Source: Bacillota bacterium (GTDB lineage Bacteria > Bacillota > Clostridia > Christensenellales > SZUA-584). From it: 64,000 nucleotides of DNA. Positions 4,513 through 30,378 of this stretch are shown piece after piece. The stretch lies in the NCBI GenBank assembly GCA_023461435.1, contig JAEYLC010000007.1, positions 1,127 through 65,126 of the forward strand. Direction: 5' to 3'. Under the pieces are notes generated by a model that was not told where the DNA came from, did no database searches, and saw nothing but the letters and a program-made list of their open reading frames with translations. The translations under genes were made by a program, and so were the position numbers. How positions within the stretch are numbered: the first letter of the stretch is position 1; every line of letters begins with the position of its first letter.

Positions 4513-5266
4513 ATCGTTCACCCCCCAATAGCGCAAGGCAATCCAATATCTGATCAAAAAAGGCCTTACGCGCTTCTTTTCGCCTGATTTCCAAGGATAT
4601 CGAACCATCGCGAATAAATACGATTCTGCTGCAATAGCTTGCAGAAAAAGGATCATGGGTGACCATTAGCAGCGTATTTCTTTTGACTTTGTTTATCATC
4701 TCCATGTATTGCATAACGGATTTTGCAGCCTTCGAATCGAGATTTCCCGTTGGTTCATCTGCAAATATAATTGCGGGATCATTGACAAGTGCCCTTCCGA
4801 TAGCCGCACGCTGCTGTTGTCCGCCGGATACGTTATTAGGGTATTTATCAGCAATATCTGTAATCTCCAAAAGGGATAAAATATACTCTGCCCTGACTTC
4901 AATATCGGATATGCTTCGCTTATCCAGTATCATGGGAAGTGTGACATTCTCCTTCATCGTCAAACTGTCAAGCAGATTAAAATCCTGAAACACATACCCC
5001 ATGTTTCTGCGCCGAAATAGGGCAAGCTCATCTCTGCCCATATCGTGTATACTCATACCACCAATCTCCACAGTACCACTTGTCGCTTTGTCCAGTCCGC
5101 TCAAAATATTCAGAAGGGTGGTCTTGCCGCTTCCCGACGGACCCATAATACCTAAGAATTCACCCTTTTCGACAGACAGATCAATCCCTTCAAGAGCCTT
5201 TGTTGAGGTTGTATTCTTTGTTCCCCCATATATTTTCGTTATTCCAGACATTCTCAATCCGATCAT
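4502..5266 (-). CDS. ABC transporter ATP-binding protein (MacB/BceA-like)
   Basis: Walker A GPSGSGKTT, signature LSGGQQQRAAIGRAL, Walker B IIFADEPTGNLD. The start is either ATG 5266 (MIGLRMSGITKIYGG) or the upstream 5311. Confidence 0.9.
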   Translation of the reverse strand: MIGLRMSGITKIYGGTKNTTSTKALEGIDLSVEKGEFLGIMGPSGSGKTTLLNILSGLDKATSGTVEIGGMSIHDMGRDELALFRRRNMGYVFQDFNLLDSLTMKENVTLPMILDKRSISDIEVRAEYILSLLEITDIADKYPNNVSGGQQQRAAIGRALVNDPAIIFADEPTGNLDSKAAKSVMQYMEMINKVKRNTLLMVTHDPFSASYCSRIVFIRDGSISLEIRRKEARKAFFDQILDCLALLGGERYDV

Positions 5267-21595: not shown

Positions 21596-21622
21596 CAGAA
21601 AACGTCTTGACCTCTGAGCCCC

Positions 21623-21660
21623 AAAAAGGCGGAGCCGTTTATATCGCACTCCGCCGGTCG
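21623..21660. terminator. bidirectional terminator between the MFS gene and metE
   Basis: GGCGGAG/CTCCGCC stem. On the minus strand it is followed by TTTTTGG. Confidence 0.6.
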
Positions 21661-21676
21661 TTTTCCTTGAATATTT

Positions 21677-23941
21677 TTACAAGTTCTCGCGCACCGCATG
21701 AACGGCTGCCACAAGGTTTTTAAGGCTGGCCGCCGTTTCTTCATTGCCGCGCGTTTTCAGGCCGCAGTCGGGGTTCACCCAAAGCTTTTCCTTGGGGATC
21801 AGCCTGAGCATCACTTCAATGGCCTGTTTGATTTCTTCGGCCGAGGGCACCCGCGGGGAGTGGATATCGTAAACGCCGGGCCCCACCGCCGTTTTAAAAT
21901 GCGCCCGGTTCAGCGTCTCCACGATGGACAGGTTGGAGCGCGCCGCTTCAAATGTGATCACGTCGGCATCCATGTCGTCGATATCCGCAATGATCTCGTC
22001 AAATTCGCTGTAGCACATGTGCGTATGGATCTGCGTGTCCGCCTGAACGGAGGCATGCACGAGTCTGAACGCGGCGATCGCCCAGTCAAGATAATCGCGG
22101 TGCCAGTCTTCCCGCCTCAGCGGAAGCTTTTCCTTCAGCGCCGCTTCGTCCACCTGTATGACGCGTATTCCCGCCGCCTCGAGCGCCAGCACCTCCTTGC
22201 GTATCGCGAGCGCGATCTGAAATGCCGTTTCATACGGCTGAACGTCCTCTCTCGGGAACGACCAGTTGAGTATCGTCACAGGGCCGGTCAGCATGCCTTT
22301 GACGGGCTTTTTCGTGAGGCTCTGCGCGTATGAAATATAATCGACGGTGATCGGCTTCGTCCATTTGATGTCGGCCCACACGATGGGCGGCTTCACGCAG
22401 CGCGTCCCGTACGACTGGACCCACGCGTTCTGTGTGAAAAGGAATCCCTCCAGATTCTCGCCGAAGTACTCGACCATATCGTTTCGTTCAAACTCGCCGT
22501 GCACAAGCACATCAAGCCCGATCTTTTCCTGCAGCGCGATGCACGCCGCGATTTTTTCTTTGATCTTAAGCCGGTATTCGTCTTCATCGATCGTGCCTTT
22601 TTTGAGCGCGGCGCGCAGCGCCTTGACCTCGGGTATCTGCGGAAAGGAACCTATGGTGGTGGCGGGCAATAAGGGCAAACTGAGCGTCCTCTTTTGGATC
22701 TTTTCACGCTCAGCAAATTGAGGCAGTCTGATAAAATTCTTGTCCTGCAATGAGGCGACAGCCTGCCTGACCTGATCGTCACGATATTGCCGCCTGGCGC
22801 TGATCAGCGCGATGTTGCCTTGATAAGCATCATCAGCTTCTTTGTTTCCGCTGAAAAGTCTCTTTATATCGGCAAGCTCGTCAAGCTTCTCGACGGCGAA
22901 AGCAAAGTGCCGCTTGACCTGCTCATCGAGCGCCGTTTCGTTCTCCAAAGTATACGGCACGTGCAGCAGCGAGCAGGACGTGGACAGCACGATGCTGTCT
23001 TTTGCAATATGTGAAGCCAGCGACCCCAGCAAAGAGAGCGTTTTGGCATAATCGTTGCGCCATATGTTTCGACCGTTAATGACCCCCGCAAAGAGCGTCT
23101 TATTTTCCGGAAACCCTTGCTCCCTGACCAGCGCGAGCGACTGCCTGCCCTCCACGAAATCAAGCCCGACGCCGTCGAAATCCATGCGGATCACGTCGCG
23201 GTAAACGTCGCGGATATCGCCGAAGTACGTTTGCAGCAGCACCTTGGCCCGCTTCTTTGCGGGCAGAATCACGTCATACAACGCCTTGAATAACGCAATG
23301 TCCTCCGCGCTTAAATCCGTCACCAAAGCAGGCTCGTCGAACTGAATCCACTGCGCGCCGAGTTGTTCGAGCTTAATAAGCATTTGCGCATACGCGTCGG
23401 CTATTTTTGCCGCAAGACGGCCCTTATCTCCCTCCGCGAGCTTTATAAACGTAAACGGGCCGATCATCACCGGCTTGGCGTTGATATCTAGGGCGCGGGC
23501 CTGTGTGTACATATCAAGTAACATGCTGTCTGAAGCAGATGGCGAAACCACGTCGTCCAGCACCGGCACCATATAATGATAATTCGTGTTGAACCATTTT
23601 CGCATGGCCAGCGCTTTCACGTCGCCTTCTTTGCCCTGATAGCCTCGCGCCATCGCAAAATACGTATCGAGCGGGCTTATGCCCAGCGCTTTATATTCGT
23701 CTGGCACGGCTCCGAGCATCATTGCGGTATCGAGCATGCCGTCATAAAATGAAAAGTCTCCGCACGGTATCAGATCAATGCCCTTCTCCTTGAGCATGAG
23801 CCATTGGCCCGCGCGCAGCGCCGCCGCCTTTTCTTTAAGCGAATTCTCCGACATTTTCCCCTGAAAGTAATCCTCGATGAGAAACTTGAGCTCTCTTCGG
23901 CTTCCGATGCGCGGAAACCCGACAACAGTGTTGAATGACAT
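21677..23941 (-). CDS. metE: cobalamin-independent methionine synthase
   Basis: Two Meth_synt halves. GFPRIGSRRELK at the N-terminus and the zinc-site motifs HTHMCYSEF and NPDCGLKTR. ATG 23941 follows AAGGAGG by 8 nt. The listed start 23959 is a TTG inside that RBS. Confidence 0.95.
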   Translation of the reverse strand: MSFNTVVGFPRIGSRRELKFLIEDYFQGKMSENSLKEKAAALRAGQWLMLKEKGIDLIPCGDFSFYDGMLDTAMMLGAVPDEYKALGISPLDTYFAMARGYQGKEGDVKALAMRKWFNTNYHYMVPVLDDVVSPSASDSMLLDMYTQARALDINAKPVMIGPFTFIKLAEGDKGRLAAKIADAYAQMLIKLEQLGAQWIQFDEPALVTDLSAEDIALFKALYDVILPAKKRAKVLLQTYFGDIRDVYRDVIRMDFDGVGLDFVEGRQSLALVREQGFPENKTLFAGVINGRNIWRNDYAKTLSLLGSLASHIAKDSIVLSTSCSLLHVPYTLENETALDEQVKRHFAFAVEKLDELADIKRLFSGNKEADDAYQGNIALISARRQYRDDQVRQAVASLQDKNFIRLPQFAEREKIQKRTLSLPLLPATTIGSFPQIPEVKALRAALKKGTIDEDEYRLKIKEKIAACIALQEKIGLDVLVHGEFERNDMVEYFGENLEGFLFTQNAWVQSYGTRCVKPPIVWADIKWTKPITVDYISYAQSLTKKPVKGMLTGPVTILNWSFPREDVQPYETAFQIALAIRKEVLALEAAGIRVIQVDEAALKEKLPLRREDWHRDYLDWAIAAFRLVHASVQADTQIHTHMCYSEFDEIIADIDDMDADVITFEAARSNLSIVETLNRAHFKTAVGPGVYDIHSPRVPSAEEIKQAIEVMLRLIPKEKLWVNPDCGLKTRGNEETAASLKNLVAAVHAVRENL

Positions 23942-24027
23942 GACATTTTCCTCCTTCAATTTCGGAGAAAACAGGGCACAAAAAAATCCCTATCTTCACT
24001 CCCCAAGATAATTGTGTATTTTGCATA

Positions 24028-24188
24028 AAGGCAGGTCTCCTGGCTTGCTCTCATCCTACTCTCTTTGTGCCTTCCCGATGGCTCAGTGGCATGGATAAAG
24101 ATTTCGTCGAGCTTACAGTAGTGGGTGCTGCTCCGGACTTGAACCGGATTCCCTATTCTCCCCGCGCGTACGCGGAGCACCTTTACAC
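24028..24188 (-). promoter_or_regulatory. cobalamin (B12) riboswitch in the metE leader
   Basis: Minus strand reads ...AATAGGGAATCCGGTTCAAGTCCGGAGCAGCACCCACTACTGTAAGC...GCCACTGAGCCATCGGGAAGGC...AGCCAGGAGACCTGCC. This matches the conserved B12-box and core of the cobalamin riboswitch in its classic position upstream of metE. Confidence 0.85.
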
Positions 24189-24211
24189 CTGATATGTTTT
24201 TATTGAAATTG

Positions 24212-24240
24212 AGTATACCAATGCATGCGGATTAAGTCAA
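24212..24240 (-). promoter_or_regulatory. candidate sigma-A promoter for the riboswitch-metE transcript
   Basis: Minus strand reads TTGACT (24240-24235), 17 nt, TATACT (24217-24212). Confidence 0.55.
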
Positions 24241-24359
24241 TATAGTTCAAGTATACTGTTACCCTCTTGTAATAGTACCTCCTTATGCGTTCTCGTATTG
24301 CGTTTGCTATACAAATTACTTAACAATTCAGCTAATTACTATTACTAAGGTAATTGTGA

Positions 24360-25403
24360 TCAATATATTTCAACATTATCATTTTCAGATATTTCTTGAT
24401 ATTTGCTGATCAATGCACTAATTTCATTCATAAGTGACTTCTTGTTGGTGTAATTCACTTCTGATAGACTGTTGAATTCTAAGCTCATAAGTTTCATCAT
24501 GAAGCCTAAATCCCATTTCATATTTTTTAGATATAAATTGAATTGATAATTTGCGAATTTTATATCTCGTTCAGACCAAAACGAATAGCCACCCAGTATT
24601 TCATTAATAACTTCTTGATTCTGTCGATCAAACGTGTTTAAAATTCTGTCGTATTCTTCTGGCGTTTCAGCTTTATTGATTAACTTGTCTTTTTCTGATA
24701 ACGAATAAAATTTAAACTTATTTAGCGTATCAATTGCCCCAATCATTGTATCTTGCACTGAAGAATCGTCTATGTCTTTAGAATCTCCGTATTTTTTTAT
24801 TTTCAAAAGATTAAATTGTATTGCAAGAATAAAAATATAAACAGACTTTGTTACTTTTTTATCTAGTATATCATTAAGACTCTTATCGGATAAATCAATG
24901 ATAATAAAACGTTTTTTGGGAGTACTTTCATTGATATGAAACCATTCATTTTTTGGATATGTCGAATCATTTCGAATACTATCTTCTATTGATTCATTCC
25001 CATTGATCCTTGCTAAAAGATGCGAACGAGTAATATTCAATTCTTTAATTTGATTATTAAATTCATCAACTAACTCTTCAGGAATTGGTATCAGCCTTTC
25101 TACTGTATCAAAATTTTCAAACCAAAGTTGATTTTCAATTTCTTCACGAGTATATTTAAACTTCAAAGTAGCAAATACTTCTTCTATTATTTCATCAAAT
25201 GACGAATTTCCTTTTGTGATATATTCTAAAACATCAAAAAGCATATCTCTATCCAGTGATTGTATTTCACCACTTTCGAGCTTAGATATATATGCAGGAC
25301 TTTTTTTTAAATAAGCAGCCAAGTCTTTAGATAAAATTGAATTTTGTATTCTTATAGTTTTTATCAATTCGGCTAACTGGCTTGTAACTTGAACTTTAGC
25401 CAT
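24360..25403 (-). CDS. XRE-family HTH protein with a ~280-aa C-terminal helical domain of unknown function
   Basis: N-terminal HTH (ILSKDLAAYLKKSPAYISKLESGE). GGAGG lies 8 nt upstream of the ATG. Very AT-rich coding sequence. Confidence 0.7.
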   Translation of the reverse strand: MAKVQVTSQLAELIKTIRIQNSILSKDLAAYLKKSPAYISKLESGEIQSLDRDMLFDVLEYITKGNSSFDEIIEEVFATLKFKYTREEIENQLWFENFDTVERLIPIPEELVDEFNNQIKELNITRSHLLARINGNESIEDSIRNDSTYPKNEWFHINESTPKKRFIIIDLSDKSLNDILDKKVTKSVYIFILAIQFNLLKIKKYGDSKDIDDSSVQDTMIGAIDTLNKFKFYSLSEKDKLINKAETPEEYDRILNTFDRQNQEVINEILGGYSFWSERDIKFANYQFNLYLKNMKWDLGFMMKLMSLEFNSLSEVNYTNKKSLMNEISALISKYQEISENDNVEIY

Positions 25404-25726
25404 AGATATGTCCTCCTCAACTGAATGTGCAATTATACCATTTTTTTAAGGTTAGGTCAAGTAATTTACCGTATTAATGTAAAGTTAATATATCACTCAA
25501 TTAATTTACTCAATTTATTTATTTTTTATTGACTTATGGAATAATTTAATATACACTGTATACGAAAGAGACAAATGAAAAAGCCATGCTACGAACATGA
25601 CTTCTTCAGGTAAAATTATTGTAAAAAACTACGCCAATATTGGTATTATACCAAATAATCTGTAGAATGCAATTCATTACCGCATAATAGTTTCTTTCAA
25701 AAATTTATTAATAAAGGAGAACTATT

Positions 25727-26638
25727 ATGAAACCGATGATGAAACACCACGTCACACAAGAATGGAAACTTGGATCAAAGGGACATGAACAGTATGACTT
25801 CATTGATGTAAATCTTAGCGATGACAATCTACTTTTTATCGATCCTTGCAGAATTGAAGAGAGCAACCATCCAATTGCTAAACAATGTGTTGCAACAATA
25901 ATTTCTTTCTTTGATATGTTTTTCATTGCATATCGTAACAGAAGCCAAGAGCTTAAACGAAGTATATTGTCGCATGCATCAGAAGAGAATAGCACGTACC
26001 TCGGATATGGATATCCTGGCAAAGGCAATACCGCTGATGGATTAATTAAAACTTTTGCACCATTAGACAAATTAATCGAATCAATACCTACAATAAATGT
26101 CGCACAAGACCTCCCAGTTCTTTTAGCTGGATTTGCAGAAGATGGTTTGTCCGACTTAATAACAAATATAATACATATTGAATTAAACGAATATACACTT
26201 AAGCAAATGTCCCGTTACGGAAAGCATCCAACTAGTATTACAGACTTTTATTCATGGAACGCTAATACTCAATCGTGGCAATTGTATACTGACCAACCTT
26301 GCTACATTTATAAAAACAAGCCAATAATGCTAGTACCAAAAGAATTTGTTAGAAAGAACTTTTTATTTAGCGCATCCCAATATATGCACAGGATTATAGT
26401 CGAAAGAATCCGCGAAGAAGGTGGCGGATATGATCCTGATGGTAAACCCATTCCAAAAACTTATTATCTCGAGCACTGCATTCCACACGATTCGGAGAAC
26501 TGGATATATGAAGAAGTATTGAAATATACTAAGGAGCATCCCGATGCATTGAGCGAATATCATGATAAATTACCTGATTTTTATTTTGAAAATCGCAAAA
26601 GAATTAATGACGATGTTTTAGACGAAGTAGTATATTAA
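25727..26638 (+). CDS. hypothetical 303-aa protein with no motif I can recognise
   Basis: AAGGAG lies 8 nt upstream of the ATG and two hairpins follow the stop. AT-rich and divergent from the HTH gene. Confidence 0.65.
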   Translation: MKPMMKHHVTQEWKLGSKGHEQYDFIDVNLSDDNLLFIDPCRIEESNHPIAKQCVATIISFFDMFFIAYRNRSQELKRSILSHASEENSTYLGYGYPGKGNTADGLIKTFAPLDKLIESIPTINVAQDLPVLLAGFAEDGLSDLITNIIHIELNEYTLKQMSRYGKHPTSITDFYSWNANTQSWQLYTDQPCYIYKNKPIMLVPKEFVRKNFLFSASQYMHRIIVERIREEGGGYDPDGKPIPKTYYLEHCIPHDSENWIYEEVLKYTKEHPDALSEYHDKLPDFYFENRKRINDDVLDEVVY

Positions 26639-26663
26639 GTAAAACCTATTTCTTAAATAGGGT

Positions 26664-26703
26664 GCAAACAAGGCTTATTTGTACTTATATTGCCTTGTTT
26701 TGC
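26664..26703 (+). terminator. intrinsic terminator after the 303-aa gene
   Basis: AACAAGGC/GCCTTGTT stem followed by TTTG. Overlaps the candidate -35 of the alaS promoter. Confidence 0.65.
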
Positions 26704-26762
26704 GCCCATTTTATTGCTATAATGTATAATCGTCATCAAGCGTTTAAAGGAGAAACACGACA

Positions 26763-28556
26763 TTGAAACAGCTGACCAGTAATGAGCTTCGGCAGATGTA
26801 TTTGGATTTTTTCGCGTCGAAGGGGCATAAAATCATCCCTTCCGCGTCACTCATACCCGAAAACGACCCCACCGTGCTGTTCACCACGGCAGGCATGCAC
26901 CCGCTCGTGCCATATCTGCTCGGCGCGAAGCACCCCGAGGGCAAGCGCTTAACCGACGTGCAAAAATGCGTGCGCACCGGCGATATCGACGAAGTGGGCG
27001 ACGCGTCTCACTGCACGTTCTTTGAAATGCTCGGCAACTGGTCTCTCGGGGATTATTTCAAAAAAGAAGCGATCAGCTACAGCTTTGAATTTTTAACCTC
27101 CGAGAAATGGCTCGGCATCGATAAGGACAGGCTCTACTTCACGTGCTTCGCGGGTGATGAGGACGCGCCAAAGGACACCGAATCCGCCGATATCTGGATG
27201 AGCCTCGGCGTGGAAGCCAGCCACATCTTCTTTCTTGACAAAAAGCACAACTGGTGGGGCCCCGCCGGCGTGACCGGCCCGTGCGGCCCGGATACCGAGA
27301 TGTTCATCGATACAGGGCTGCCCGCGTGCTCGCCCGATTGCAGCCCCGCTTGCTCGTGCGGCAAATACCTCGAGATCTGGAACGACGTGTTCATGCAGTA
27401 CAACAAAACGGCGGAAGGCACATTCGAGCCGCTCTCGCAGAAAAACGTGGACACAGGCATGGGGCTCGACCGCACAATCGCCACACTGCAGGGCAAAAAG
27501 AGCGTGTACGACACCGACGCGTTCACGGGCATACTCGCCAAAATCGCCGAGCTCTCGGGCAAGAATTATAATGACGATCCCGAGACCACGCGCGCTTTTC
27601 GCATCATCGCGGACCATGTGCGCTGCGCCACGTTCATCATGGGCGACCAGCGCGGCGTGACGCCTTCCAATGTGGATCAGGGCTATGTTCTGCGCCGTCT
27701 GATCCGCCGCGCCGTGCGCTACGCGCTGCGGCTCGGTATCGAGCGCATGTCGCTGCAACTTGTCGCAGAGGCTGTGATTAATCAGTATAAAGGCGTTTAT
27801 CCGGAGCTCGGCCAGAACCAGAGCCGCATCATCAGCGAGCTCAACCTCGAGGAGGAACGGTTCTCTCGCACAATCACGCAAGGGCTCAAGGAATTCGAAA
27901 AGCTCGAGGCGCGGCTTGACGGCAAGGTGATCTCGGGGCAGGACGCGTTCCATCTATACGACACATTCGGGTTCCCGCTTGAGTTCACGCTTGAGCTCGC
28001 GCATGAGCACGGTCTTGAGGTGGATCAGAAGGGCTTCGAAGCCGCGTTCCAGAAGCATCAGGAGATTTCGGGCGCGGGTGCAGAGCAACGCTTCAAGGGC
28101 GGCCTTGCCGATACGGGCGAAGCCACCGCGCGTCTGCACACCGCGACACACCTCATGCACGCGGCATTGATGAAGGTGCTCGGCGCCGAGGTGGATCAGC
28201 GCGGCAGCAACATCACGGCGGACCGTCTGCGTTTCGATTTCGCGTTCTCACGTAAGGTGGAACCGGATGAGCTTAAAGAGGTGGAGCGCCTTGTGAATGA
28301 AGCGATTGAGAAGAAGATGCCGGTGATCTGCGAGGAGATGAGCGTCGCCGACGCCAAGAGTCAGGGCGCAATCGGCATATTCGATGCCAAATACGGCAGC
28401 ATCGTGAAGGTGTATTCCGCGGGCGACTTCTCCAAGGAAATCTGCGGCGGCCCGCACGCCACCAACACAGGCGAACTTGGCCGGTTTGAGATACAGAAGG
28501 AGCAGTCGAGCTCGGCGGGTGTGCGCCGCATCAAGGCTGTGCTGATCAGCGAATAG
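26763..28556 (+). CDS. alaS: alanine--tRNA ligase, short form (catalytic plus editing domains, no C-Ala domain)
   Basis: TTG start 8 nt after AGGAG. Motifs DPTVLFTTAGM, FFEMLGNWSLGDYFK and WNDVFMQYN. Editing motifs HTATHLMH and CGGPH. The protein ends at 597 aa, right after the editing core. Confidence 0.85.
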   Translation: MKQLTSNELRQMYLDFFASKGHKIIPSASLIPENDPTVLFTTAGMHPLVPYLLGAKHPEGKRLTDVQKCVRTGDIDEVGDASHCTFFEMLGNWSLGDYFKKEAISYSFEFLTSEKWLGIDKDRLYFTCFAGDEDAPKDTESADIWMSLGVEASHIFFLDKKHNWWGPAGVTGPCGPDTEMFIDTGLPACSPDCSPACSCGKYLEIWNDVFMQYNKTAEGTFEPLSQKNVDTGMGLDRTIATLQGKKSVYDTDAFTGILAKIAELSGKNYNDDPETTRAFRIIADHVRCATFIMGDQRGVTPSNVDQGYVLRRLIRRAVRYALRLGIERMSLQLVAEAVINQYKGVYPELGQNQSRIISELNLEEERFSRTITQGLKEFEKLEARLDGKVISGQDAFHLYDTFGFPLEFTLELAHEHGLEVDQKGFEAAFQKHQEISGAGAEQRFKGGLADTGEATARLHTATHLMHAALMKVLGAEVDQRGSNITADRLRFDFAFSRKVEPDELKEVERLVNEAIEKKMPVICEEMSVADAKSQGAIGIFDAKYGSIVKVYSAGDFSKEICGGPHATNTGELGRFEIQKEQSSSAGVRRIKAVLISE

Positions 28557-28573
28557 AATATATTGGTTACTTG

Positions 28574-28598
28574 AAGCGGGCTTGATGCCCGCTTTTTT
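28574..28598 (+). terminator. intrinsic terminator after alaS
   Basis: AAGCGGGC/GCCCGCTT stem followed by TTTTT. Confidence 0.8.
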
Positions 28599-28719
28599 AC
28601 ATTTCTGTTGCAAATCCGATGATTTTCGTTACGAAAATTTGTATTATTTCCCTCGCTCGGAACTTCCTCCAAAAAGCGTTCGTCTTTGGTGTGTAAAAAC
28701 GAAACAGGAGGACCCCCTC

Positions 28720-30378
28720 ATGAAAACGATCAAAAAAACTGTTGTGATATTGCTGGCTGCAATCATCACATTCGGCGCCTTGGCAGGCTGCGCGGCGCCC
28801 GCCGCTCCCGCCGCATCCGAATCGGCCTCCGCCCCATCTTCTCCCGCCGCGTCGGCGGATGCCGGTCAGGCTTATCCGTCCGAAGCGCCCGCGGCCTGTG
28901 CGGAGGAATCCGCCGCTTACAACGGCTCCTATGACAGAGAACCCTTTCAAAACACCACAAGCTACGGCACCGAGGAATACGGCAGCTTTGCCGAAAGCCC
29001 GTTTTATTCCCCGCTCAAGGACCCCTTGAGCACCTTCTCGATTGACGTGGATACCGCGTCGTACAGCCAGATACGGCAGTACTTAAACGAGGGCGCGCTG
29101 CCGCCCGCCGACGCCGTGCGCGTTGAGGAATGCATCAACTACTTTTCTTACAACTATGAAGCGCCTTATGGCACTGAGCCCGTCAACGTTGGCGTCACCA
29201 TCAGCAGCTGTCCGTGGAACGGGAACCATTACCTCGCGCGCGTCTCGCTCAAGGCGGATGAGCTCGATATGAGCGAGGCGCCCGACAGCAATCTCGTATT
29301 TCTGCTCGATGTCTCTGGCTCCATGGACGACCCCAAAAAGCTGCCGCTCGTCAAATCCGCCATGAGCATGCTGGCCGACAATCTGAGTGAAAACGACCGC
29401 GTCTCCATCGTCGTCTACGCGGGTGCGTCGGGCGTCGGGCTCGATGGCTGCCGCGGCAACGACGGCTGGACGATCAACAACGCGCTTGGCTGCCTCTCCG
29501 CGGGCGGTTCCACAGCGGGCGGCGAAGGCATTGAACTCGCGTACGCGCTCGCCGCGAAGAACTATATCAACGGCGGCAACAACCGCGTGATACTCTGCAC
29601 CGACGGCGACTTCAACGTGGGCCCTTCGTCCGATGAGGAGCTCGAGACGCTGATCGAAAACAAACGCGACAGCGGCATCTATTTGAGCGTGCTCGGCTTC
29701 GGCACGGGCAACACGAAAGACAACCACATGGAGACGCTCGCCGACAAGGGCAACGGCAACTACGCGTATATCGATTCGCTGATGGAAGCGAAAAAGGTGC
29801 TCGTCAACGAAGCGAGCTCCACGCTGTTCACGGTCGCCAAGGACGTGAAGGTGCAGGTGGAGTTTAACCCGGACGCGGTCAGAGAATACCGGCTCGTCGG
29901 GTACGACAACCGGCTGCTGGAGGCGCAGGATTTCAACAACGACCAAAAGGACGCGGGCGAGATGGGTGCCGGGCACTGCGTCACCGCGTTCTATGAGCTT
30001 GTGCTCGTGGATTCGACAGAAACGTGGAACAGCGTTGACCCGCTTGTGTTTCAGGACAACGAGAAGCCCGAGACCAAGCAGCCCGCAAGAGACTGGCTGT
30101 ATGTCAAGTTCCGCTACAAGCAGCCGGAAAGCGATAAGAGCGAGCTCTTAACGACAATGGCGGGAATCGACAACTATACCGACGCGCCCGACAGCGATTT
30201 CGTGTTCGCGTCGGCGGTCGCGGAATTCGCGCTCGTGCTCAAAGGCTCGGAGTACCGGGGCGGCGCGAGCCTCACAAGCGCGGTTCAGCGCGCCAAGGCG
30301 GCGCGCGGCACGGATGAGGACGGCTACCGTGCTCAGTTCATACAGCTCGCCGAGCTCGCCAGTACGTTCTACAGATAA
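28720..30378 (+). CDS. von Willebrand factor A domain lipoprotein (YfbK-like)
   Basis: ATG 28720 follows AGGAGG. Lipobox LAGC. MIDAS motif LLDVSGSM. Long C-terminal domain. The listed start 28582 adds an implausible leader. Confidence 0.85.
   Translation: MKTIKKTVVILLAAIITFGALAGCAAPAAPAASESASAPSSPAASADAGQAYPSEAPAACAEESAAYNGSYDREPFQNTTSYGTEEYGSFAESPFYSPLKDPLSTFSIDVDTASYSQIRQYLNEGALPPADAVRVEECINYFSYNYEAPYGTEPVNVGVTISSCPWNGNHYLARVSLKADELDMSEAPDSNLVFLLDVSGSMDDPKKLPLVKSAMSMLADNLSENDRVSIVVYAGASGVGLDGCRGNDGWTINNALGCLSAGGSTAGGEGIELAYALAAKNYINGGNNRVILCTDGDFNVGPSSDEELETLIENKRDSGIYLSVLGFGTGNTKDNHMETLADKGNGNYAYIDSLMEAKKVLVNEASSTLFTVAKDVKVQVEFNPDAVREYRLVGYDNRLLEAQDFNNDQKDAGEMGAGHCVTAFYELVLVDSTETWNSVDPLVFQDNEKPETKQPARDWLYVKFRYKQPESDKSELLTTMAGIDNYTDAPDSDFVFASAVAEFALVLKGSEYRGGASLTSAVQRAKAARGTDEDGYRAQFIQLAELASTFYR

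Follow-up and report, generated by a model that had tools for sequence, protein, structure and literature searches.

An AT-rich island between metE and an alaS-like gene carries a predicted regulator, a DUF8370 gene and a candidate antisense RNA, probably as an anti-phage module

Results and Discussion

The AT-rich island and its genes

The window, that is, the whole 64,000-nt stretch of Bacillota DNA analysed here, contains an island (24360-26740) with a G+C fraction of 0.31, flanked by sequence of 0.526 on the left and 0.576 on the right. In 300-nt segments, G+C stays at 0.27-0.37 throughout positions 24200-26750 and is 0.52-0.62 on either side. The original prediction, made from the letters alone, had described a sharp drop in G+C between the metE and alaS promoters, and this was confirmed (31% against 53-58% in the flanks). 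The ORF listing also upheld the two divergent genes and the 323-nt spacer between them; we refer to the genes as ORF A and ORF B (Table 1). A metE promoter-like site lies upstream of a cobalamin riboswitch, and the left edge of the island is therefore where it had been placed, at the metE promoter. As had been reported, the island contains no mobility gene and no direct repeats bracket it. No peptidase gene was found in the island, and the ORF listing of the window showed no ATPase gene within or adjoining it. The "alaS" (AlaRS-like) gene 3' of the island encodes a product of only 597 aa. The module is solitary, with housekeeping genes on both sides and no defence island there.

Table 1. Features of the island and its left edge.
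Feature	Position	Strand	Description	Basis
Cobalamin riboswitch	24013-24199	-	E 6e-30	
metE promoter-like site	24240..24212	-	TTGACT-17-TATACT	promoter consensus scan
ORF A	24360..25403	-	347 aa; predicted autoregulated transcription factor of the divergent cargo gene	ORF and homologue neighbourhoods
ORF A promoter	25432..25460	-	-35 TTGACC (25460..25455), 17-nt spacer, extended -10 TGGTATAAT (25440..25432)	
Operator-like O2	25456..25469	-	GTAAATTACTTGAC; half-degenerate GTAAA-N4-TTTAC palindrome over the ORF A -35 box	
Operator-like O1	25496..25509	-	GTAAATTAATTGAG; two mismatches to GTAAA-N4-TTTAC	
Predicted ORF B (cargo) promoter	25529..25557	+	TTGACT-17-TACACT; 5' UTR ~160 nt	
Predicted antisense small-RNA gene	25566..25672	-	within the ORF B 5' UTR	promoter and terminator
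12-codon uORF	25572-25610		not conserved in L001 or L003	reading of spacers
ORF B RBS	25713..25719	+	AAAGGAG, 7 nt 5' of the ATG	read from sequence
ORF B	25727..26638	+	303 aa; short-form DUF8370 (PF28123); predicted defence cargo/effector	
Two hairpins 3' of ORF B	26641..26715	+		read from sequence

The regulator family of ORF A

ORF A consists of an N-terminal XRE-type HTH (residues ~8-62) followed by an alpha/beta domain of ~280 aa, and a conserved E-x-Y forms its C-terminal end. The XRE HTH assigned in the original prediction is recovered by HTH_3 (PF01381), which matches residues 14-61 with 25.7 bits, above the cut-off of 23 (E 1.2e-5). The ~280-aa domain matched no Pfam family and no solved structure. 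The AF2 model (pLDDT 82) contains beta strands. Its Foldseek matches were confined to the HTH, where ~75-90 residues were matched to ClgR and C.Esp1396I with a probability of 1.00. Among the PADLOC models, ORF A matched only the generic HTH_VI and capH, the latter weakly (E 0.0015) and in the HTH region, and none of the PDC-M36 models. The nearest weak sequence matches to the HTH are the XRE-HTH antitoxins HipB, HigA and MqsA.

The ORF A family comprises at least 99 clusters, which are uniform in length and carry precomputed tags of HTH families only, and some residues are invariant among the homologues. This is apparently a previously undescribed family of ~350 aa in which an XRE HTH is joined to a unique C-terminal domain. 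The genes divergent from its members, here called cargo, fall into 14 clusters, 11 of which have defence-related model or domain matches. They include CBASS cyclases (1e-128, 4e-82) and SAVED-HNH (3e-108), TIR, KwaB with KwaA, PDC-S31, PDC-S45 and DUF8370, as well as an MBL-fold protein (PDC-M48B/LmuA/DRT-type) and Nuc_deoxyrib_tr-like and NTP_transf_2/SMODS-like proteins. We also observed cargo genes so far without defence annotation, namely the 280-aa, DUF6119 and L075-type genes.

ORF B and the DUF8370 family

ORF B had been presented as an orphan, a description that has to be abandoned, since it carries the DUF8370 tag and has matches to PADLOC PDC-M36A and to two PHROGs. The PF28123.1 (DUF8370) tag is a precomputed one, present on ORF B and on 120 of 120 listed homologues, and a Pfam copy older than the PF28123 model gave no family for ORF B. 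The PDC-M36A match (E 6e-11) aligns residues 18-229 with positions 16-231 of a 457-position model, covering the N-terminal ~230 residues and not the full length. No other PADLOC model matched ORF B, and our literature search found no mention of PDC-M36.

A profile search for the DUF8370 family returned 1,637 representative clusters. The invariant residues of the family are mostly polar and rich in acids; those of ORF B are H20, D39, E86, N88, T90, D128, E138, D139, S142, D143, N147, H150, K205 and R209. Full-length relatives of 460-500 aa match both PDC-M36A models and have acidic/polar residues in common with ORF B. These long forms bear a C-terminal extension of ~170 aa with a D...ECK motif and weak Mrr_cat matches, which on sequence grounds is a probable PD-(D/E)xK nuclease domain; where they have this extension, ORF B ends in a separate helical tail of ~70 aa. 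The AF2 model of ORF B (pLDDT 91.9) had no match in fold searches of PDB and BFVD.

An AAA_21/AAA_15 ATPase gene lies directly upstream of DUF8370 in ~25 of ~30 independent genome loci, and these ATPases match AbiLi (2e-60) and also AriA and HEC-01A. At other loci the neighbours are PD-T7-3, a type IV restriction enzyme of the HNH kind, or Fic/helicase/MazG-like/HD genes. ORF A is absent beside most DUF8370 genes. It may also be that DUF8370 acts as a sensor or adaptor and is not the killing part; at the window locus there is no other effector.

The two hairpins that had been noted at the end of ORF B were also recovered, the second being legible in the sequence (~26663-26704) as an 11-12-bp stem, GCAAACAAGGC...GCCTTGTTTTGC, followed by a T-rich tail. 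Our consensus scan missed this hairpin because its loop is longer than 8 nt. It is likely the terminator of ORF B and precedes the AlaRS-like gene's promoter.

Promoters and operator-like sites in the spacer

The ORF A promoter matches the consensus at 11 of 12 positions and has the TG in addition, and its counterpart in homologous loci is TTGACy-17-TATAAT. Overlap of O2 with its -35 box fits autorepression by ORF A, and in most ORF A-family loci the operator is fused with the -35 box (GTAAAnnnnTTGAC). O1, which lies inside a 13-nt tandem repeat (25495-25520), precedes the cargo -35 box by 20 nt. Since it lies upstream of this box and not over it, ORF A could be an activator and not a repressor of the cargo.

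Of 44 non-redundant loci, 15 have a perfect GTAAA-N4-TTTAC palindrome at the position equivalent to O1, which is -85 to -108 relative to the ATG of ORF A. When up to two mismatches were allowed, the palindrome was found between the promoters in 39 of the 44, against 12.3 +/- 2.7 in shuffles. Its position is fixed whatever the cargo type, and the second site is fused to the ORF A -35 box. The spacing between O1 and O2 is 40 nt in the window versus the usual 29 nt. The cargo -35 box is kept as TTGAC(A/T/G) in the DUF8370-carrying lineages L001, L003, L098, L099 and L100, and reads GTCAA in other cargo types.

A predicted antisense RNA in the cargo leader

The original prediction had regarded the spacer as a control region and overlooked a third component in it, a predicted cis-antisense small RNA. 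Its promoter, on the minus strand, has -35 TTGCAT (25672..25667), a 16-nt spacer and an extended -10 TGGTATAAT (25653..25645). The RNA would be ~73 nt long, from a start near 25638 to a U-run ending at ~25566, and its terminator hairpin (25608..25576) has 14-15 bp with G.U pairs and a 3-nt loop. In the region of the ORF B 5' UTR the scan placed a terminator on the minus strand and none on the plus strand, the T-run being 3' of the hairpin only in the antisense direction. In RNAfold the minus strand gave -18.2 kcal/mol (z -3.6), against -7.3 (z -0.65) for the plus strand. The predicted RNA stops ~75 nt upstream of the ORF B RBS, which stays uncovered.

The same promoter-plus-hairpin unit, with differing stems, is present in L001, L003 and L098. 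Across the four lineages (four sequences, three independent stems) 56 of 56 stem cells pair; compensatory changes are seen in six of the 14 pairs, and G.U accounts for 10 cells. On the antisense strand, all four have a near-consensus extended -10 promoter 36-45 nt upstream of the hairpin. Among 38 non-redundant DUF8370 loci, including loci without ORF A, we counted 17 antisense promoter-plus-terminator units and 0 sense ones. Similar antisense units occur in ~20 of the 44 ORF A-family loci, and the cassette of regulator, operator and antisense RNA also occurs with bona fide CBASS operons. A covariance model recovered 12 loci of one RNA sequence type, all antisense to the cargo; model R1 did not match the window RNA, and a search of Rfam, abiF motif included, gave no match to it. 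The four RNA sequence types have a common architecture, and any homology between them is putative. The unit is absent from L099, L100 and the ORF A loci with 170-230-nt spacers, and it is therefore dispensable for the module.

The hairpin could instead be a structure of the sense-strand 5' UTR with a role in mRNA stability, in attenuation or as a protein-binding site, or it could insulate the ORF A promoter from stray leftward transcription, the rest of the module being as proposed below. This alternative is unlikely, although the antisense RNA is a sequence prediction with a deduced transcript, the two strands of L003 fold about equally (-20.8 vs -23.9 kcal/mol), and a sense ncRNA upstream of an Abi gene has a precedent in Clostridia, RCd22/abiF (PMC12373285). 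On the sense strand, however, the ten G.U cells become A.C mismatches, with one position invariant across the four lineages, and the T-run, the conserved promoter and the count of units all favour the antisense strand. The ATPase-type loci argue against an insulator in particular, as they have no ORF A promoter needing insulation. An antisense RNA remains our preferred reading of this element.

Recurrence and mobility of the module

ORF A and DUF8370 occur as a pair in seven lineages (the window, L001, L003, L011, L098, L099 and L100), with flanks unrelated between lineages and with identities of both proteins that fall in parallel. The module has a G+C of 30-40% in every host, including hosts of 51-56%, and a Tn7-like element and a serine recombinase are among its contexts. 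Neither gene is tied to the other: members of the regulator family have many cargo types, and DUF8370 is located behind an ATPase more often than beside ORF A. Relatives of DUF8370 are carried by 83 plasmids, mostly mobilizable, and are annotated there solely as hypothetical proteins. We also noticed DUF8370 on staphylococcal and Bacillus plasmids.

The original prediction had singled out the metE-alaS interval for comparison with relatives. In the only close relative at hand (~81% nucleotide identity), both genes occupy the corresponding site in front of the same downstream gene, and the island is equally AT-rich; the segment that differs is metE with its riboswitch. The cassette is older than the split from this nearest relative. 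The earlier view of a horizontally mobile cassette, in which an HTH regulator governs an abortive-infection or toxin-type effector, is supported in its core by the recurrence of the pair in seven lineages and unrelated contexts, by the anti-phage genes found beside each gene elsewhere and by the operator-like palindrome between the divergent promoters. The recent insertion that it implied is not supported, given that the relative has the same pair, site and AT-richness. Co-occurrence of the two genes elsewhere was found as anticipated, and so were the defence-gene neighbourhoods: both genes elsewhere adjoin recognised anti-phage genes, the window locus itself lying outside a defence island.

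Comparison with known systems

The known controllers CapW/BrxR (wHTH-WYL-WCX), CapH with CapP (XRE HTH and metallopeptidase), CapK with CapS (kinase and STAS-wHTH) and RptR, a 79-aa four-helix protein, are dedicated autoregulated factors that adjoin, and are often divergent from, unrelated immune operons (CBASS, TIR and others), with palindromic sites within the shared promoter region (PMC9122601, PMC9122588, 10.1101/2022.04.27.489752, PMC13373217, PMC12255303). The ORF A family shows the same pattern of neighbours and palindromes. It differs from the Cap controllers in that ORF A is a single protein, lacks WYL, STAS and peptidase domains and is not accompanied by a kinase or protease gene as partner, and from RptR in size and structure (79 aa and four helices against ~350 aa). 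Our literature search found no description of an antisense RNA for these controllers or RptR, and about half of the ORF A modules add one. Two identities for ORF A were rejected: CapH with CapP, as ORF A has no HExxH or peptidase domain and its weak capH match covers the HTH only, and CapW/BrxR, as no WYL/wHTH was found in ORF A (Pfam, NCBIfam, PADLOC) or in the tags of the 99 clusters.

The best structural matches to the ORF A HTH are the restriction-modification controllers C.Esp1396I, C.BclI and C.EcoT38IS (TM ~0.6-0.74, target-normalised). C proteins have two adjacent palindromic operators, one of them at the -35 box, which results in autoregulation. They are single-domain proteins of ~80 aa co-transcribed with the restriction gene, whereas ORF A is longer by the ~280-aa domain and is transcribed divergently from its cargo, with no R-M genes in the vicinity.

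ORF B corresponds to the N-terminal part of PDC-M36A, with conserved acidic/polar residues in common, but it is without the D...ECK C-terminal extension, and ORF A is outside the PDC-M36 models. Like the second genes of AbiL, PARIS and Septu, DUF8370 is mostly in the partner-gene position, right after an AbiLi/AriA-like ATPase. It is unrelated, however, to RloB/AbiLii, the AriB Toprim domain and the PtuB HNH (PADLOC), and the window has the HTH regulator upstream in place of an ATPase, so that the AbiL ATPase is missing.

In type I toxin-antitoxin systems (hok/sok, tisB/istR-1, symE/symR) a short RNA is antisense to the 5' leader of the toxin mRNA, and convergent transcription is also known from prgQ/prgX of pCF10. 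The predicted RNA resembles those of type I systems in being short, constitutively promoted, antisense to the cargo 5' leader and ended by a strong intrinsic terminator. Classic type I toxins are small hydrophobic membrane peptides, typically of <60 aa; ORF B, in contrast, is a soluble protein of 303 aa, the predicted RNA is clear of the RBS and there is an extra protein regulator. In Clostridioides difficile, the Abi-type gene abiF is restrained by a dedicated small ncRNA from its 5' region, RCd22, which is on the sense strand and neutralises AbiF by direct binding in a type III-like manner (PMC12373285). A small RNA in the 5' region of the cargo is the common feature, and the antisense orientation of the predicted RNA is the difference.

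Proposed function and alternative explanations

These data suggest that the AT-rich island is probably a compact, horizontally mobile anti-phage module made of a regulator, a DUF8370 cargo and a predicted antisense RNA. The anti-phage role is suggested by guilt by association, that is, by neighbouring genes. Our basis is in silico: the families to which the genes belong, their neighbours, the conservation of the operator and, for the RNA, its promoter, terminator, strand and covariation. DNA binding and repression by ORF A, transcription of the RNA, toxicity of the cargo, the trigger and the anti-phage activity are what we infer.

The best reading is that the defence cargo is held by two locks, one transcriptional and one antisense. 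ORF A would bind the GTAAA-N4-TTTAC sites between the back-to-back promoters, repress its own promoter through the site over the -35 box and control the divergent cargo promoter. The ~73-nt antisense RNA would pair with the cargo 5' UTR and hold down basal expression, as the lock of a type I toxin-antitoxin system does. ORF B, once made, would harm the cell or the phage and may act on nucleic acids. Infection would free the locks through a cue sensed by the ORF A C-terminal domain, through loss of the antisense RNA, or through both; a short-lived RNA would be lost upon shut-off of host transcription.

A type II toxin-antitoxin system, in which the ORF A C-terminal domain would bind and neutralise a DUF8370 toxin in an addiction or stress module, is improbable. 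The antitoxins HipB, HigA and MqsA among the matches to the HTH, the pairing in seven lineages and a cargo that seems in need of tight control speak for such a system. The genes, however, are divergent with separate promoters and form no operon, most DUF8370 genes have no ORF A, and one regulator family with its operator serves 14 unrelated cargo clusters, whole CBASS operons included, which one would hardly expect of an antidote acting by specific protein-protein contact.

We give equally little credence to a role outside defence, with ORF A as an ordinary local regulator and DUF8370 as an accessory enzyme of mobile elements (plasmid/ICE maintenance, DNA metabolism). Proximity to defence genes would then mean only that both reside in variable regions subject to horizontal transfer, and the hypothetical proteins on mostly mobilizable plasmids, the status of PDC-M36 as a candidate system and the position of the window module outside defence islands are compatible with this. 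Against it, the association concerns immediate neighbours, is repeated across unrelated defence families and holds for each gene independently, and the control cassette is the one found with bona fide CBASS operons.

The original prediction had also offered an RNPP/Rgg-like regulator that binds a secreted peptide and turns on ORF B; despite a similar size and layout (an N-terminal XRE HTH, then ~280 aa of largely helical domain) and the presence of ComR and PlcR in the Foldseek list (E ~0.02), this is extremely improbable and we reject it, as full-length alignments to ComR/PlcR gave TM 0.13-0.22 and rmsd 19-22 A, that is, no fold similarity outside the HTH, the model has beta strands and no TPR-like superhelix, none of the 99 homologue clusters is tagged with TPR or another Pfam family besides the HTH, no conserved small peptide ORF was noticed on reading the spacers (the uORF at 25572-25610 included, as judged in L001 and L003), and the cargo consists of immune genes, none of them for competence, virulence or bacteriocins.

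Implications

The preferred reading, an anti-phage module under a transcriptional and an antisense lock, can be extended to a portable "dual-lock" cassette placed ahead of CBASS, TIR, Kiwa-like and DUF8370 effectors in Firmicutes and some Bacteroidota. In this extended form, which is tentative and as a whole rather doubtful, the antisense RNA would be the sensor of transcription shut-off, the ORF A C-terminal domain would sense a second cue, and DUF8370 would be a metal-dependent nucleic-acid effector of a new fold.

Few families of transcriptional controllers of immune systems are known (CapW/BrxR, CapH with CapP, CapK with CapS, and RptR), mostly from Proteobacteria, and our data point to the ORF A family as a further one, largely from Firmicutes and gut metagenomes. 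Its useful traits are a single polypeptide, a clearly defined operator and, in about half of the modules, a predicted antisense-RNA lock, which combine into a model, open to direct testing, in which toxic effectors would be silenced and then released. The cassette is also a guilt-by-association handle for new defence genes, with the 280-aa, DUF6119 and L075-type cargo as candidates. DUF8370 itself, with its 1,637 representative clusters, its presence on plasmids and a confident model without fold match, is worth biochemical study and, as the model suggests, may represent a new effector or sensor fold.

Composition and boundaries of the island

Analysis of the base composition confirmed the sharp G+C drop of the original prediction. 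Each 300-nt segment from 24200 to 26750 has a G+C content of 0.27–0.37, against 0.52–0.62 on either side, and the island as a whole (24360-26740) has 0.31, compared with 0.526 and 0.576 in the flanks. Exactly two substantial ORFs are found in it, ORF A (a predicted XRE-type regulator) and ORF B (its predicted cargo), which lie at the positions first reported and are divergent, with start codons 323 nt apart. As also proposed, a metE promoter marks the left edge, ahead of a cobalamin riboswitch which forms the metE leader, indicating that metE is B12-repressed. Searches of the island and its edges found neither a mobility gene nor att-like direct repeats bracketing it, in line with the earlier inspection. 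The right neighbour is an AlaRS-like gene; bacterial AlaRS usually has about 870 aa and is thus longer than this 597-aa form, which is also present in the genome GCA_023436525.1.

This Bacillota MAG (loci L001, L002 and L010) was the sole close relative retrieved. Its alignment with the window covers 24362 to 30378 at about 81% nucleotide identity and includes the AT-rich pair, which is likewise G+C-poor there (0.29 and 0.36). The two genomes differ in the segment of about 21600-24360 with metE and the riboswitch, which is missing from the relative (compared with L001 5354-6623). In the relative, ORF A directly adjoins an MFS transporter gene, and an additional beta-lactamase-family gene is located further left, between a PALP gene and the MFS gene. 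Since pair and composition occur in both genomes, the cassette is older than the split of the two lineages and has retained its foreign composition. We also observed a 14-nt near-repeat, TCAATATAGTTCAA at 24237-24250 at the metE promoter and TCAATATATTTCAA at 24360-24373, exactly at the synteny breakpoint.

Features of the island and its flanks in the window
Feature	Position	Strand	Basis or remark
metE	21677-23959	-	left neighbour of the island
Cobalamin riboswitch RF00174, metE leader	24013-24199	-	116.9 bits, E 6e-30
metE promoter TTGACT-17-TATACT	24240..24212	-	promoter consensus scan; upstream of riboswitch
ORF A	24360-25403	-	347 aa
Extended -10 TGGTATAAT, ORF A promoter	25440-25432	-	identical in antisense-RNA promoter
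Operator-like palindrome O2	25469..25456	-	overlaps ORF A -35 TTGACC at 25460..25455
Operator-like palindrome O1	25509..25496	-	two mismatches; within 13-nt tandem repeat
Predicted cargo promoter TTGACT-17-TACACT	25529-25557	+	promoter scan
uORF MKKPCYEHDFFR	25572-25610	+	12 codons; spans leader hairpin
Terminator-like hairpin	25608..25576	-	consensus scan
Predicted antisense RNA	~25638 to ~25566	-	roughly 73 nt
Antisense-RNA promoter elements	25672..25667, 25653..25645	-	sequence position; second includes extended -10 TGGTATAAT
ORF B	25727-26638	+	303 aa
AlaRS-like gene, right neighbour	26763-28556	+	597 aa; tRNA-synt_2c + tRNA_SAD

ORF B belongs to the DUF8370 family

ORF B had been described as an orphan. 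It is a member of PF28123 (DUF8370), a tag carried in the protein database by the window's own protein and by all listed homologs; the PADLOC candidate-system model PDC-M36A matches its residues 18-229 (E 6e-11) and PHROG 27295 its residues 22-231 (E 1e-18). Pfam and NCBIfam scans of ORF B in the releases used gave no family, sequence and profile searches against the PDB gave nothing (best E 0.86), and a literature search on PDC-M36, DUF8370 and PF28123 retrieved no papers. The AlphaFold2 model is confident (pLDDT 91.9, pTM 0.90), yet Foldseek gave no match for its fold in the PDB (best E 1.0, TM ≤0.14) or BFVD (best E 0.37), with TM ≤0.19 over both.

An exhaustive profile search retrieved 1,637 representative DUF8370 clusters at E≤0.001 and 238 at E≤1e-30, and the proteins fall into a short class of about 300 aa, to which ORF B belongs, and a long class of 460-500 aa that matches the full PDC-M36A models. 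The C-terminal extra ~170 residues of the long forms contain the invariant pattern G-x-K-x-x-D ... E-C-K-N-Y ... D-Q-x-x-G-R-F (P0323-P0371), which probably reads as a PD-(D/E)xK nuclease core. This extension, which ORF B lacks, has sub-threshold similarity to Pfam Mrr_cat (E 0.002-0.02), one match to RRG7, which we take to be another PD-(D/E)xK family, and no match in the PDB. Invariant or near-invariant positions in 46 short-form sequences are H20, D27, D33, D39, E86, N88, T90, D128, E138, D139, S142, D143, T146, N147, H150, K205 and R209; being mostly polar and acid-rich, they resemble an active site or a site of ligand binding.

The surroundings of DUF8370 were studied in 34 reference-genome loci and in Veillonella loci. 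The 34 loci are from Firmicutes except L013 (a short Bacteroides-labelled contig) and L043 (a Tenericutes-labelled MAG). Directly upstream of DUF8370, on the same strand, about 25 independent loci carry an ORF of 420-465 aa encoding an AAA_21/AAA_15 ATPase that matches the PADLOC models AbiLi (E 2e-60), HEC-01A, AriA and PD-T4-4_A, sometimes with a ~210-aa ORF in between. The commonest position of DUF8370 is that of partner of an AbiL/PARIS-like ATPase. Other neighbours are, in Veillonella, an upstream PD-T7-3 (E 2e-40) together with an IS200-type transposase, an HNH type IV restriction enzyme (L038), and Fic, ResIII helicase, MazG-like and HD genes (L101). These neighbours indicate that DUF8370 is a defence-island gene. 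Relatives are present on 83 plasmids (Staphylococcus, Bacillus, Rhodococcus), every one annotated as hypothetical protein, and tblastn of ORF B against a phage genome collection gave no match. On contig JAGAQI010000047.1 the ATPase-DUF8370 locus occurs twice (L023 and L024; 84-97 kb and 167-180 kb) in opposite orientations, the gene layout being the same over 12.9 kb, which suggests that a large region was duplicated in inverted form or that a mobile element is present twice.

ORF A defines a family of predicted regulators often adjoining defence genes

The domain search corroborated a bona fide XRE-type HTH in ORF A, and the remaining ~280 residues matched nothing in family searches. No non-HTH Pfam tag was found in 99 homolog clusters, the NCBIfam scan returned nothing useful, and sequence and profile searches against the PDB matched the HTH alone. 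The model of ORF A (alpha/beta, pLDDT 82) gave the same picture: Foldseek recovered the HTH, with ClgR and the R-M controller proteins C.Esp1396I, C.BclI and C.EcoT38IS, but found no fold match for the rest of the protein, nor for ORF B. The suggestion of an RNPP/Rgg-like regulator is rejected because the likeness is confined to the HTH, and full-length alignments to ComR and PlcR reach TM 0.13-0.22 with rmsd of ~20 Å. The family shares with CapW/BrxR, CapH+CapP, CapK+CapS and RptR their reported genomic signature, namely adjoining defence genes, but its architecture matches none of them, which rules out RptR and CapS as identities.

All family members have 342-369 aa and a conserved C-terminal E-x-Y. 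This terminal motif, residues 345-347 in the window and kept in nearly all members, might serve for docking or as a degradation tag. Against plasmids, tblastn of ORF A found no match.

We surveyed the cargo, that is, the gene divergent to ORF A, in 59 loci with a located homolog. In most of them the divergent gene starts 170-500 nt away (in a few, up to ~920 nt), and these genes form 14 unrelated clusters, 11 of which match a defence model or a domain typical of defence. In L044 (4241-5774), KwaA (+) and KwaB (-) are annotated as convergent, with a serine recombinase, an LlaJI-type restriction gene and the ORF A homolog as neighbours; to our knowledge this orientation is unusual for a Kiwa pair.

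Cargo clusters divergent to ORF A homologs
Cargo	Locus	Match or context
DUF8370	window, L001	PDC-M36A N-terminal domain
MBL-fold, 316 aa	L045	PADLOC PDC-M48B, LmuA, DRT-associated MBL; inside Tn7-like element
HNH-SAVED	L059	CBASS effector, E 3e-108
CD-NTase/SMODS cyclase	L076	PADLOC Cyclase, E 1e-128
CD-NTase/SMODS cyclase, separate cluster	L073	PADLOC Cyclase, E 4e-82
NTP_transf_2 / SMODS-like	L070	NTP_transf_2 over Pfam cut-off; SMODS weak, E 7e-4, under cut-off
TIR	L077	Pfam TIR_2 + TIR
KwaB, KwaA adjoining	L044	Pfam tags on called genes
Nuc_deoxyrib_tr-like	L047	adjoins type I R-M system
Trypsin-like	L069	PADLOC PDC-S45
231-aa protein	L090	PADLOC PDC-S31
DUF6119	L064	without defence annotation
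280-aa protein	L080	without annotation
375-aa protein	L075	without annotation

DUF8370 is flanked by an ORF A homolog in seven lineages: the window, L001, L003-5, L011 (Clostridium cadaveris), L098, L099 and L100. The spacer between the two genes is 313-437 nt throughout, and the paired copies are the closest DUF8370 relatives of the window copy, with identity falling from 78 to 50%; that of ORF A drops alongside, from 87% to 29%. Flanks could be read in two long contigs, L003 and L011, and are unrelated to those of the window; in L003-5 the pair has FAD oxidoreductase genes on one side and an amylase gene on the other. Beyond this clade ORF A and DUF8370 each have other partners. The pairing is real, yet one instance of module shuffling.

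A conserved putative operator in the spacer

Comparison of the spacers with ORF A pointing right in all revealed a constant layout. The cargo -35 box (TTGAC, reversed) comes first, followed 8-20 nt later by a palindrome AGTAAA-N4-TTTACT; about 29 nt beyond, a second copy is fused to the ORF A -35 box (GTAAAnnnnTTGAC) and precedes a TATAAT -10. The core GTAAA-N4-TTTAC, with up to two mismatches, was found in 39 of the 44 non-redundant upstream regions (shuffles, 12.3 +/- 2.7; maximum 20), and the perfect 14-mer, present in 15 of 44 loci, is always at -84 to -108 from the ORF A ATG whatever the cargo type. These results support a role of ORF A as a sequence-specific regulator of its own gene that would also act on the cargo promoter. 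The geometry is compatible with either repression or activation of the cargo and does not say which.

A predicted antisense RNA in the cargo leader

The terminator-like hairpin of the window spacer is also present in L001, L003 and L098. Its loop is conserved (UUCGUAG; UUGCAAG in L098) and its arms vary among lineages (GAAGAAGUCAUG, GGAGCAAUG, GGAACGAUG). In the minus-strand alignment of the four sequences all 56 cells pair, compared with 41-59% when the partners are slid, and in 6 of the 14 pairs both partners have changed. G.U pairs occupy ten cells, one pair being U.G in all four sequences, and would become A.C mismatches if read on the plus strand. Folding of the window hairpin gave -18.2 kcal/mol (z -3.6) for the minus strand and -7.3 (z -0.65) for the plus strand; the values were -28.2 and -16.1 in L098 and about equal in L003. 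Only on the minus strand is the hairpin followed by a T-run. The structure thus appears to belong to the minus strand.

On this strand, 36-45 nt upstream of the hairpin, all four lineages have a promoter consisting of (T/A)TGCA(T/A), a 16-nt spacer and TGn-TATAAT/TAAAAT/TATACT. The conserved cargo promoter predicts an ORF B 5' UTR that encloses the whole of the predicted RNA, whose end lies ~75 nt before the RBS. We consider this antisense RNA probably real. Rfam detected nothing in the window spacer besides the metE cobalamin riboswitch. Start codon and frame of the uORF are not conserved between lineages; because it is interrupted in L001 and in another frame in L003, it is probably not functional.

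Similar units were searched conservatively as TTGnnn, 16-18 nt and TAnnnT, with a hairpin of ≥7 bp and a T-run 25-70 nt on, the terminator rule being relaxed for stems running into the T-run (L001, L003). About 20 of the 44 non-redundant ORF A loci have one on the ORF A-sense strand, where its distance is fixed: the promoter is mostly at -246 to -271 (a few to -390), and the hairpin mostly ends at -155 to -175. The cargoes of these loci are of several types, comprising the 280-aa cluster, an MBL-like cluster, SMODS operons and DUF8370. No ORF A spacer has a terminator on the cargo-sense strand, and loci with 170-230-nt spacers are without the unit. Upstream of DUF8370, the 38 non-redundant loci yielded 17 antisense and no sense units, and most of the 17 have the ATPase, not ORF A, upstream. 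In L036 the RNA terminator lies 7 nt past the ATPase stop codon with the T-run only antisense-ward, so that sense transcription would read from the ATPase across the RNA gene into DUF8370.

At least four sequence types were distinguished (window-type, L019-type, L080-type and the 'ACACCGAG' type). A covariance model of the last, R1, recovers 12 loci (L036 5775-5857 (-), L011, L028, L030, L031, L035, L037, L039-L042 and L050) with E 1e-13 to 1e-19, all antisense to the cargo. This conserved RNA of ~81 nt (...GCUUCUGUCACCCUACAGGACACCGAG-loop-CUCGGUGUUUUU) is located between the AbiLi-like ATPase gene and DUF8370, and is also present in L050, which has an ORF A homolog but no DUF8370. Possible peptides within it were dismissed, as start codon and frame are not conserved between lineages. 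The L080-type (~4750-4850) has an extra conserved 5' hairpin (GUAUUAAC...GUUAAUAC) and a covarying terminator stem, and Rfam found no family in the L080 spacer. It is common to L080, L083, L084, L085, L092 and L076, in ORF A modules with three unrelated cargoes, a 280-aa unknown protein, an MBL-like protein and a CBASS cyclase operon. The R1 search missed the RNAs of the window-type, L019-type and L080-type, and thus gave no evidence of common descent of the types.

A model of the module

Around the in silico results, which comprise the families of the two proteins, their gene neighbourhoods, the operator and the promoter-terminator cassette whose covariation is strand-specific, the following model may be drawn. 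ORF A would bind O1 and O2, repress its own gene and gate the cargo promoter, and the antisense RNA would pair with the cargo leader and lower basal expression, possibly through RNase III-type cleavage, transcriptional interference or a blocked ribosome standby site. The cargo would be harmful once expressed, and infection would free it. We moderately favour this reading as a regulated defence cargo, and place far less confidence in any particular trigger than in the reading or in the RNA. In the window genome the two genes of the module stand by themselves, outside any defence island. Considering the two proposed locks, the ATPases that accompany DUF8370 elsewhere and the nuclease-like domain fused to its long forms, a toxic, nucleic-acid-directed role is the most economical guess for DUF8370; ORF B, without the nuclease-like domain, could instead be a sensor or adaptor. 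A literature search found no published description of the ORF A controller family. An immune gene with a dedicated controller is a known kind of arrangement, and what appears to be new is this controller family, its operator and the recurrent antisense-RNA lock.
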